Source of the DNA: a virus
Taxonomy: Duplodnaviria; Heunggongvirae; Uroviricota; Caudoviricetes
Length of the DNA: 35,836 nucleotides
Reading direction: 5' to 3' (one strand)
IMG/VR virus record: IMGVR_UViG_2645727821_000018
A program made the position numbers and the translations under genes. The notes beneath the pieces were generated by a model. It saw only the letters and a program-made list of their open reading frames with translations. It did not search any database and was not told the origin of the DNA. Positions within the stretch are counted from its first letter, which is position 1; every line of letters starts with the position of its first letter. Positions 13,671-14,244 of this stretch are shown here, piece by piece.

Positions 13671-13777
13671 GTGATTTTCGCCGAAGATAGTGACATGAAG
13701 CTTGCATTTTTTCAAAAAATATGGATAAGATTTTCTCAACGATGGGCTTTGTATGTCTGCCGTTGATAATTTTCACG

Positions 13778-13803
13778 AACCCGCTGTTGAGCGGGTTTTT
13801 ATT
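13778..13803 (+). terminator. Intrinsic terminator downstream of Q (candidate tR' for Q-dependent antitermination)
   Basis: Hairpin AACCCGCT-gttg-AGCGGGTT followed by TTTTTATTT. Confidence 0.7.
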
Positions 13804-13856
13804 TACTTGTACTGAAACACATTATATAACCTCATATCAGTTAAAAAGGAGGTTGT

Positions 13857-14192
13857 ATGATTAATGCCGTTGAGTACAGATTACCGTTAGGAAATATCTC
13901 TCCAGAGAATCTTGACGCGTTGTCAGAACTTATCGTTAAGCATTCCGATAAATTTAATAACTATGTACTTAGTTCTATTTCTGATGATGATATTCGATAT
14001 TCTTACGATTACTACAATTTTGAAATCACAGAGATAGATGAATATGGGTTTCACTTTATAGCACCATATAGCTATTATGAAGGATGCGTTGACAATAACT
14101 TCTCAGGAGAGGTTGAAGGTTATGCAGAATACGAAATTATTGATAATGAATTAGTCTTCTCTCTTGAGGAACTACCTTGGGATGTAAAATAA
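13857..14192 (+). CDS. Hypothetical acidic protein; accessory gene between Q and the lysis cassette
   Basis: 111 aa; strong SD AAGGAGG 6 nt upstream. AT-rich, D/E/Y-rich product with no signal peptide or TM. Has its own downstream hairpin. Confidence 0.55.
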   Translation: MINAVEYRLPLGNISPENLDALSELIVKHSDKFNNYVLSSISDDDIRYSYDYYNFEITEIDEYGFHFIAPYSYYEGCVDNNFSGEVEGYAEYEIIDNELVFSLEELPWDVK

Positions 14193-14203
14193 ATATCAAT
14201 AAT

Positions 14204-14232
14204 AAAGGCCGTAACGAACGGCCTTTATTATT
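14204..14232 (+). terminator. Terminator-like hairpin after the accessory gene
   Basis: Stem AAAGGCCG / CGGCCTTT with a 7-nt loop, followed by ATTATTAT (weak U-tract). Confidence 0.4.
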
Positions 14233-14244
14233 ATAAAATCATCA

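Follow-up and report, generated by a model that had tools for sequence, protein, structure and literature searches.

Lambdoid prophages are known to carry morons, a concept of Hendrix and Juhala, with bor and lom of phage lambda and the extra genes of HK97 and HK022 as examples. The 35,836-nt stretch analysed here (the window, on which all positions are counted) is a lambdoid Escherichia coli prophage, and this study concerns gene X, which encodes a small acidic protein between the Q antiterminator gene and the holin gene. Like the lambdoid morons, X occurs in only some of the syntenic relatives, lies between conserved modules, is AT-rich, and has its own terminator. In its relatives it also has a putative sigma-70 promoter of its own, and it is probably expressed from the prophage. 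X differs from these morons in its position inside the late-operon leader, right after the terminator tR', and in a hairpin which occludes the ribosome-binding site (RBS). We know of no description of such a hairpin in the lambdoid morons, in a literature which was not searched exhaustively. The Shiga toxin (Stx) genes are AT-rich, horizontally exchangeable cargo of the same Q-to-S slot, and the backbone of the Stx2c phages has 88% nucleotide identity to that of the window. Stx relies on Q read-through and on release at lysis, whereas X has no signal peptide, no toxin-like domain, an RBS predicted to be masked in the read-through RNA, and its own terminator.

Transcript-selective translation in phage T4 was reportedly described by McPheeters et al. 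in 1986. In the T4 genes e, soc, 49, and I-TevI, the RBS is hidden in a helix when transcription reads through from upstream, and RNA started at a promoter inside the 5' strand of that helix can be translated (PMC3014915). X resembles gene e in the sequestration of the Shine-Dalgarno (SD) sequence and the AUG in the long RNA, and in the geometry of a promoter in the 5' strand, although the X promoter is putative and weak in the clade of the window. In T4, the internal promoter is late and the masked RNA is early; in X, masking would fall on the late, Q-dependent RNA, and a putative host sigma-70 promoter would take the internal position. The Tai/Ati system of phage phi80 is a prophage accessory gene for defence within a Q-controlled late unit, which is shut off by late transcription; it lies upstream of the packaging module and is controlled by convergent transcription (PMC11364771). 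X is likewise an accessory gene in a Q-controlled unit that needs coordination with late transcription. However, it has no sequence similarity to Tai/Ati and an RBS hairpin instead of convergent transcription, and a role of X in defence is a hypothesis only.

The X cassette belongs among the lambdoid morons, a kind already known; its protein is uncharacterised, and its insulation design is unusually explicit and testable. It is a self-contained unit of about 0.5 kb, placed directly after tR' of a lambda-type late operon and thus flanked by a terminator at either end. Its parts are as follows.

13801-14311, + strand: AT-rich inserted cassette (moron), with leader, open reading frame (ORF), terminator, and a 3' AT-rich tail.
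13802-13830, + strand: weak sigma-70 promoter-like element, with TTTACT at 13802-13807 and a predicted +1 at about 13835-13837.
13821-13861, + strand: hairpin in the 5' untranslated region, in which 13821-13833 pairs with 13849-13861 over 13 bp.
13857-14192, + strand: gene X, 111 aa (WP_000606308.1, phrog_13663), with an ATG behind AAGGAGG.
14197-14240, both strands: bidirectional intrinsic terminator, with a 16-bp stem at 14197-14233, a GGCCG/CGGCC core, and flanking A- and T-tracts.

The start-site hairpin sequesters the GAGG of the SD sequence (GGAGG, 13848-13852), the spacer, and the AUG (13857-13859). Its minimum free energy is -13.7 kcal/mol (z-score -4.65), and none of 200 dinucleotide shuffles was equally stable. 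X (z -4.0) is the outlier when all 19 annotated genes of the UTI89 prophage are compared, the next gene having a z-score of -2.2. Similar hairpins were found in the other prophage clades, with z-scores of -2.4 to -5.5 in eight further representatives and weaker ones in five. The arms of the stem vary by clade: AACCUC/GAGGUU, AUCCAC/GUGGAU, UUUCACC/GGUGAAA, CAUCAC/GUGAUG, and CUCC/GGAG. The MAFFT alignment of the leaders was out of structural register; thus, covariation was tested by swapping the arms between sequences (derangements) and not by alignment columns. For 14 of the 18 sequences, no cross-clade pairing was as stable as their own. With eight clade representatives, the summed energy was -100.4 kcal/mol, against -62.9 +/- 5.9 kcal/mol after swapping, and none of the 7390 derangements reached the observed value. 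These comparisons indicate that the start-site hairpin is conserved by covariation across the clades. It is missing in both lineages in which X stands alone in the chromosome (z +0.3 and +1.3). Since these lone lineages, which have no late transcript, lack the hairpin, it might be tied to the phage context. None of the Rfam families reached threshold.

The RNAs were folded in long forms (from 13738 or 13799) and in short forms (from 13835 or 13837). In the long RNA, the predicted probability of the AUG being unpaired is 0.06-0.13 at 25-42 C, and four of the five SD bases are predicted to be paired. In the short RNA, the AUG is predicted to be unpaired at about 0.6-0.7, with a largely open SD sequence. 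By these predictions only, efficient translation from the Q-antiterminated transcript would not be expected. An RNA thermometer was also considered and rejected, as the predicted pairing of the SD and AUG is nearly unchanged from 25 to 42 C; with such constant pairing, it is the start of the transcript that would matter.

The putative promoter of the short RNA overlaps the hairpin. The window offers two -10 hexamers, TATATA (13823-13828, 15-nt spacer) and TATAAC (13825-13830, 17-nt spacer). The motif [TC]T[GT][AG]C[AT]-N15-TAnnn[TA] is found in 17 of the 18 distinct prophage upstream regions, with a chance expectation of 0.013 per 90 nt, and the predicted +1 falls in or just past the 5' arm of the hairpin in all 17. 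No part of the cassette is better conserved in the distant clades than CATTTCTGA-N-AAAAAACATTT[TC]TG[AG]CATAAC, followed after 15 nt by TAnnnT; the TTGACATAAC block with its A-tract is also highly conserved there. This TTGACA-15-TAnnnT element is kept behind all four types of Q found beside X, so it is not a Q-specific site. Some candidate functions were discarded. The element might be the true pR', with X between pR' and tR'; this was rejected in view of a lambda-type pR' with AACGATGGG upstream of the first hairpin, and of the retention behind four different Q families. A sigma-54 site and a LexA box were rejected by eye, as the upstream block does not keep the GG/GC and CAG positions that these sites need.

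A further feature of the distant cassettes (loci L049 and L012 4925-4960, L052, L055) is a direct repeat of the 8-mer TTTCTGAC in two copies 18 bp apart, the second of which overlaps the -35 box. These repeats may be a candidate binding site for a regulator.

We tentatively propose that X is a moron whose translation uses a short mRNA of its own and is masked in the Q read-through RNA, following the logic of T4 gene e, and that its product is a binder which aids the lysogen. This proposal is regarded as quite possible, if just short of probable. The cassette's own sigma-70 promoter would start the short mRNA, which would be the main template for X. As the -10 region sits in the 5' arm of the hairpin, this mRNA would lack the anti-SD strand, and it would stop at the cassette terminator, so that the lysis genes would stay silent in the lysogen. 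Late RNA antiterminated by Q would cross the cassette with the full hairpin, and X would be poorly translated in lytic growth. X would be made from the short mRNA in the lysogen, or at any time. By the logic of T4 e, soc, and I-TevI, expression in the lysogen would here be kept apart from late expression. The product would most likely bind a host or foreign macromolecule stoichiometrically and so help the lysogen, for instance in exclusion, defence, or immunity, and might be useless or harmful during the late development of the phage itself. A wider claim, that X founds a new family of lysogen-expressed factors which are shut off in the late transcript by a promoter-in-hairpin switch against self-interference, is considered unlikely.

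The consequences of such a switch would reach beyond this gene. The Q-to-holin interval is the slot which turns harmless prophages into Stx producers, and its occupant X has never been named. If the hairpin and promoter logic is true, the place of a gene behind Q would fail to predict the timing of its protein, which matters for the reading of prophage cargo in pathogens. The promoter-in-hairpin switch would then be a previously undescribed way to insulate a moron inside a lambdoid late-operon leader. The logic of the long and short leaders is also a simple handle on an uncharacterised family with a possible part in conflicts between phage and host or between phages.

The other view is that of the original prediction, which described X as late-expressed from the slot of Stx-type cargo. 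The slot itself is directly supported. Over the 130 nt that follow Q (13672-13800), the window shares 88-90% identity with the Stx2c-converting phages, mEp460, and Ayreon, which have a 264-aa Q of the same type, and the Stx2c phages carry stx2A and stx2B in the same interval, behind the same pR'/tR' backbone. The features of the late unit are as follows.

12918-13670, + strand: Q antiterminator gene, lambda-Q type with a zinc-finger region; 12918 is the RefSeq start, and the mechanical ORF start is 12876.
13703-13746, + strand: late promoter pR', with TTGCAT at 13703-13708, a 17-nt spacer, TAAGAT at 13726-13731, and an inferred +1 at about 13738.
13738-13746, + strand: lambda-like, sigma-dependent pause element, AACGATGGG, 6 nt after TAAGAT.
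13777-13803, + strand: tR'-like intrinsic terminator, a 9-bp stem (5 GC pairs) at 13777-13798 followed by TTTTTATTT, about 40-65 nt past the pR' start.

The pR' of lambda has the same layout (TTGACT-17-TAAATT-tgactc-AACGATGGG), and the motif CTCAACGATGGG is common to both promoters. AACGAT has a role in pausing at lambda pR'. The homologous tR' site in phage Ayreon carries the annotation "terminator".

If X were Q-dependent late cargo, it would be made essentially only from pR' after antitermination, as stx2 is, and the hairpin would throttle or time its translation or stabilise the RNA. Its product might counter late abortive-infection systems as an anti-defence factor, or might be packaged and injected like Dar of P1 and IPI* of T4. 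Several observations agree with this model or weigh against a separate short mRNA. X is the first ORF after the lambda-type pR'/tR', on the same strand and before the lysis genes, and every prophage copy keeps the place between Q and holin even at 26-40% identity. In some phages X adjoins an orphan DNA methylase, and such methylases are typical of late cargo against restriction. Strong acidity, which X shows, is common among DNA-mimic anti-restriction proteins. The promoter-like element is weak in the clade of the window, with no T at -7 and TTTACT as the -35 box, and was not called at 13802-13830 in a consensus promoter scan of the window. A 15-bp spacer is also atypical for a promoter. The conservation of TATATAACC could be explained by the hairpin alone, and the -10-like hexamers of the other clades can in part pair with the AUG region, which may be why they are conserved. 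The terminator after X could be mere inherited baggage, and the lone chromosomal copies could be relics and not selected genes.

However, other observations do not fit purely Q-driven expression. Folding predicts a paired SD and AUG in the read-through RNA over the whole range of 25-42 C. A terminator between X and the holin gene would be needed only if Q-independent transcription enters, and a purely Q-driven gene would not need one; by sequence, an equivalent terminator follows X in every prophage copy with the holin directly next to it. A terminator scan gave three sites against 0.8 expected. The TTGACA box is kept behind four Q families, and intact copies of X stand alone in the chromosome without any phage. 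The retention of the slot is not strong evidence, as it is expected of any cargo in syntenic mosaic lambdoid genomes. A late cargo is judged somewhat unlikely, though far from negligible, and late expression of X is doubtful in view of the start site masked by prediction, the own terminator, and the putative own promoter, which is clear in the relatives.

The distribution of X bears on the same question. A total of 64 X loci were gathered, and their flanks were classed by tblastn with reference proteins. X lies between Q and a holin/endolysin cassette in 54 of the 64. Four kinds of Q were found beside it: PF03589, a 192-aa DUF1133/PF06530 protein, a 121-aa PF06530 protein, and a 204-aa Q-like protein. 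The lysis partners are of at least five cassette types, in at least ten Q/lysis combinations, including LydA holin with the lambda-R type, holin_8/3_7 with GH19, and holin_2_3 or 2_1 with T4-type lysozyme. In some loci an N6/N4 methylase lies between X and the holin gene. Two lineages are lone chromosomal islets, near ycgL/dsbB/fadR and near sbcB/dacD, and no phage DNA or relics were detected around either. These patterns argue against a function that needs the lytic programme. The carriers include extraintestinal and avian pathogenic E. coli (ExPEC/APEC) strains, and Salmonella, Citrobacter, and Enterobacter prophages. Of 5426 complete E. coli genomes, 131 contain the 570-bp interval with at least 99% identity, among them UTI89, S88, IHE3034, NU14, APEC O18, and the type strain ATCC 11775, and 878 contain its pR'/tR' part.

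Two functions suggested originally lose ground here. X lies directly upstream of the holin gene, and might time lysis as a functional member of the lysis cassette, acting as an antiholin or inhibiting the holin or the endolysin. However, it is combined with at least five unrelated lysis cassettes and has no fixed lysis partner, and the methylase sometimes separates it from the holin gene. PhiR47_2 has the same holin without X, only 131 of the 5426 genomes carry X, the lone copies have no lysis genes, and the protein has no transmembrane (TM) segment. This function is regarded as very improbable. An effector released at lysis is also unlikely, given lone copies without a lysis system. For the third suggestion, an anti-defence factor, the analysis gave evidence neither for nor against.

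The product of X is a 13-kDa protein with 24 D+E against 5 K+R residues, a pI of 4.05, a net charge of about -19, and 12 Tyr residues. The original prediction saw no signal peptide, TM segment, or recognisable family in it, and profile scans and hydrophobicity agree: the maximum KD19 (Kyte-Doolittle, 19 residues) is 0.59, with no hydrophobic segment, and no signal peptide, TM segment, or curated family was found. X belongs to an uncharacterised Enterobacterales family and is cytoplasmic and very acidic. A word-index search gave only 5 clusters, and an exhaustive hidden Markov model search of 1.84 billion representatives gave 26 proteins, nearly all of about 110 aa. The family has the conserved residues F33, Y48, C77, Y92, and W108, and the motifs Y[YF]xGCxDxN and LDETxW. 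The match to phrog_13663 has an E-value of 9.4e-54 over residues 1-111 of 111, and 25 of 25 aligned relatives match as well. This PHROG is annotated as "unknown function", and every database name for X is "hypothetical" or "uncharacterized". Scans of Pfam, NCBIfam, and PADLOC gave no family, sequence profiles of 4 and 25 sequences had no match in the PDB, and tblastn with both clades of X found no homologue in 50,697 phage genomes; these negatives also speak against a late cargo. A literature search with the accession WP_000606308.1 found nothing.

A decaying, non-functional hitch-hiker ORF might also be considered, as X lies in AT-rich, foreign DNA (GC content 0.33 for the ORF and 0.29 at third codon positions) and has always been annotated as hypothetical. 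The substitution pattern is not that of a decaying ORF. Between X and its Salmonella copy (72% aa identity), pN is 0.17 and pS is 0.80, with saturated synonymous sites, and dN/dS is 0.28 between the Salmonella and Citrobacter copies, which shows that X is a real gene under strong purifying selection. The full length of about 110 aa is kept over at least 26 clusters at 50% identity, the SD sequence is strong, the regulatory hairpin covaries, and the exact protein is found on at least 1000 contigs. A hitch-hiker is thus scarcely to be believed.

The AlphaFold2 model of X (mean confidence, pLDDT, 86.7) has the order beta1-alpha1-alpha2-beta2 to beta6, and suggests an alpha+beta fold, a cystatin/NTF2-like roll without a catalytic motif. 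Cystatin-like, NTF2-like, and VirB8-like alpha+beta rolls are among the closest known systems. The C-terminal LDETxW tail is conserved, with low model confidence. Because X is acidic, has no catalytic signature, is modelled as such a roll, and keeps its C-terminal tail, it is most likely a cytoplasmic stoichiometric binder or inhibitor. In a more specific version of the binder, X would be an orphan immunity protein or antidote (Ati-like, or CdiI/Im-like) against a toxin, or against an abortive-infection or defence effector encoded elsewhere. A small, acidic, cytoplasmic, single-domain protein without a catalytic motif would suit this role, its low-confidence tail could serve for docking, and there is a precedent in the counter-defence protein AtiEcA of phi80, encoded in a Q-controlled operon. 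However, no conserved partner gene was seen, as the neighbours of X differ in every context, and X has no sequence relation to phi80 or to any sequenced phage. The antidote is regarded as quite improbable.

Within the window, the gene order around X is RusA, KilA-N, DUF968/HNH, Q, X, holin, lambda-R-type lysozyme, Rz, HNH, and terminase. The Q protein matches PF03589 (E-value 3e-54) and DnaJ_CXXCXGXG in Pfam, and PHROG 127 (anti-termination protein Q-like); its UTI89 annotation is WP_001047143.1. The elements which the original prediction had listed were found to be real, at or within a few bases of its positions: the ORF 13857-14192, the upstream terminator 13777-13803, the downstream hairpin 14197-14233, and the AT-rich insert. 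On the left, homology to phages with the same Q ends at 13800, and Ayreon diverges straight after the T-run of the hairpin. On the right, homology to the holin region of PhiR47_2 begins at about 14312. The GC content of the cassette is 0.32, against 0.51 for the whole window, with values of 0.30-0.35 across 13700-14300 against about 0.50 in the flanks; it is likewise low in 8 of the 10 homologous loci examined. The first lysis gene lies outside the cassette.

14344-14649, + strand: holin gene, LydA/holin III type (Pfam PF16083), with the RefSeq start of WP_000544527.1.

The start at 14245 implied earlier does not hold for the holin. An ORF from 14245 takes its first 33 codons, the 5' third, from cassette DNA, the RefSeq start is at 14344, and the PhiR47_2 homology covers only the part from about 14312. 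A GGAGG at 14320-14324 precedes a CTG at 14330, which hints that an upstream start was lost or is non-canonical, as in a dual-start motif.

The same slot has other contents in related phages. The Q of the Stx2c phages (264 aa) is almost identical to that of the window, and the Q of Ayreon is of the same type. In the Stx2c phages, the Q-to-holin interval is 7.3 kb long and ends with a P21-type holin. It carries two small ORFs, a DNA methylase, tRNA-Met, tRNA-Arg, stx2A (ribosome-inactivating protein domain, RIP), stx2B (SLT_beta), and a nanS-like esterase. The slot of Ayreon holds small ORFs and a methylase, with a terminator after each. In PhiR47_2 the slot is empty, and the same holin stands directly behind a different Q. 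In the Stx2c phages and Ayreon, the cargo behind tR' begins with a gene that has a terminator of its own and encodes a 141-aa protein whose N-terminus (MKKVLIAAIGFCLVGC) resembles that of a lipoprotein. No Pfam match was found for this protein (L070 341-766, L018 2780-3205), which is another uncharacterised moron of the same slot. The tR' hairpin itself, AACCCGCC-ACTG-AGCGGGTTTTT, is near-identical across unrelated Q families, PF03589 in Ayreon and DUF1133 in the Salmonella prophages (compared at window 13777-13798, L018 2605-2630, and L002 5921-5945). It could be a recombination anchor for swapping cargo behind Q.

A second AT-rich island (15550-16500, GC content 0.30-0.36) lies between Rz and the HNH/terminase genes. 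Its ORFs are 15617-15868 (forward, 83 aa), 15975-16172 (reverse, 65 aa), and 16247-16477 (reverse, 76 aa), and had no significant match in four profile libraries or by tblastn against phages. Its position and mixed strands resemble the non-contiguous Tai/Ati operon of phi80, upstream of the packaging module. Only two of the loci carrying X have the island. A partner gene of X in this island was rejected, as its ORFs are absent from most X-bearing phages.

Some further carriers have distinct contexts. A scan of GTDB species representatives found X only in Erwinia tracheiphila, in a decayed prophage ridden with insertion sequences. There (L014-L016, L028) it is annotated with 132 aa, including a putative 22-aa hydrophobic N-terminal extension; it lies about 5 kb from a Q fragment and adjoins an LPMO/GbpA (lytic polysaccharide monooxygenase) gene. 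A Citrobacter freundii prophage with X carries, in its early region, a 364-aa gene with a pore-forming colicin domain (PF01024; L007 2181-3275, - strand), which adjoins DinI. The only match in a plasmid search with X was a 37.7-kb circular copy of the same phage, with no hint of a plasmid leading region. This replicon, NZ_CP081716.1 (L069, E. coli CX04, 37,667 bp), is listed as a circular, non-mobilizable "plasmid" and has the same RusA, KilA-N, DUF968, X, holin, HNH, and TerS modules. Most probably it represents the genome of this phage after excision and circularisation, and prophages of this type would then seem to be inducible.

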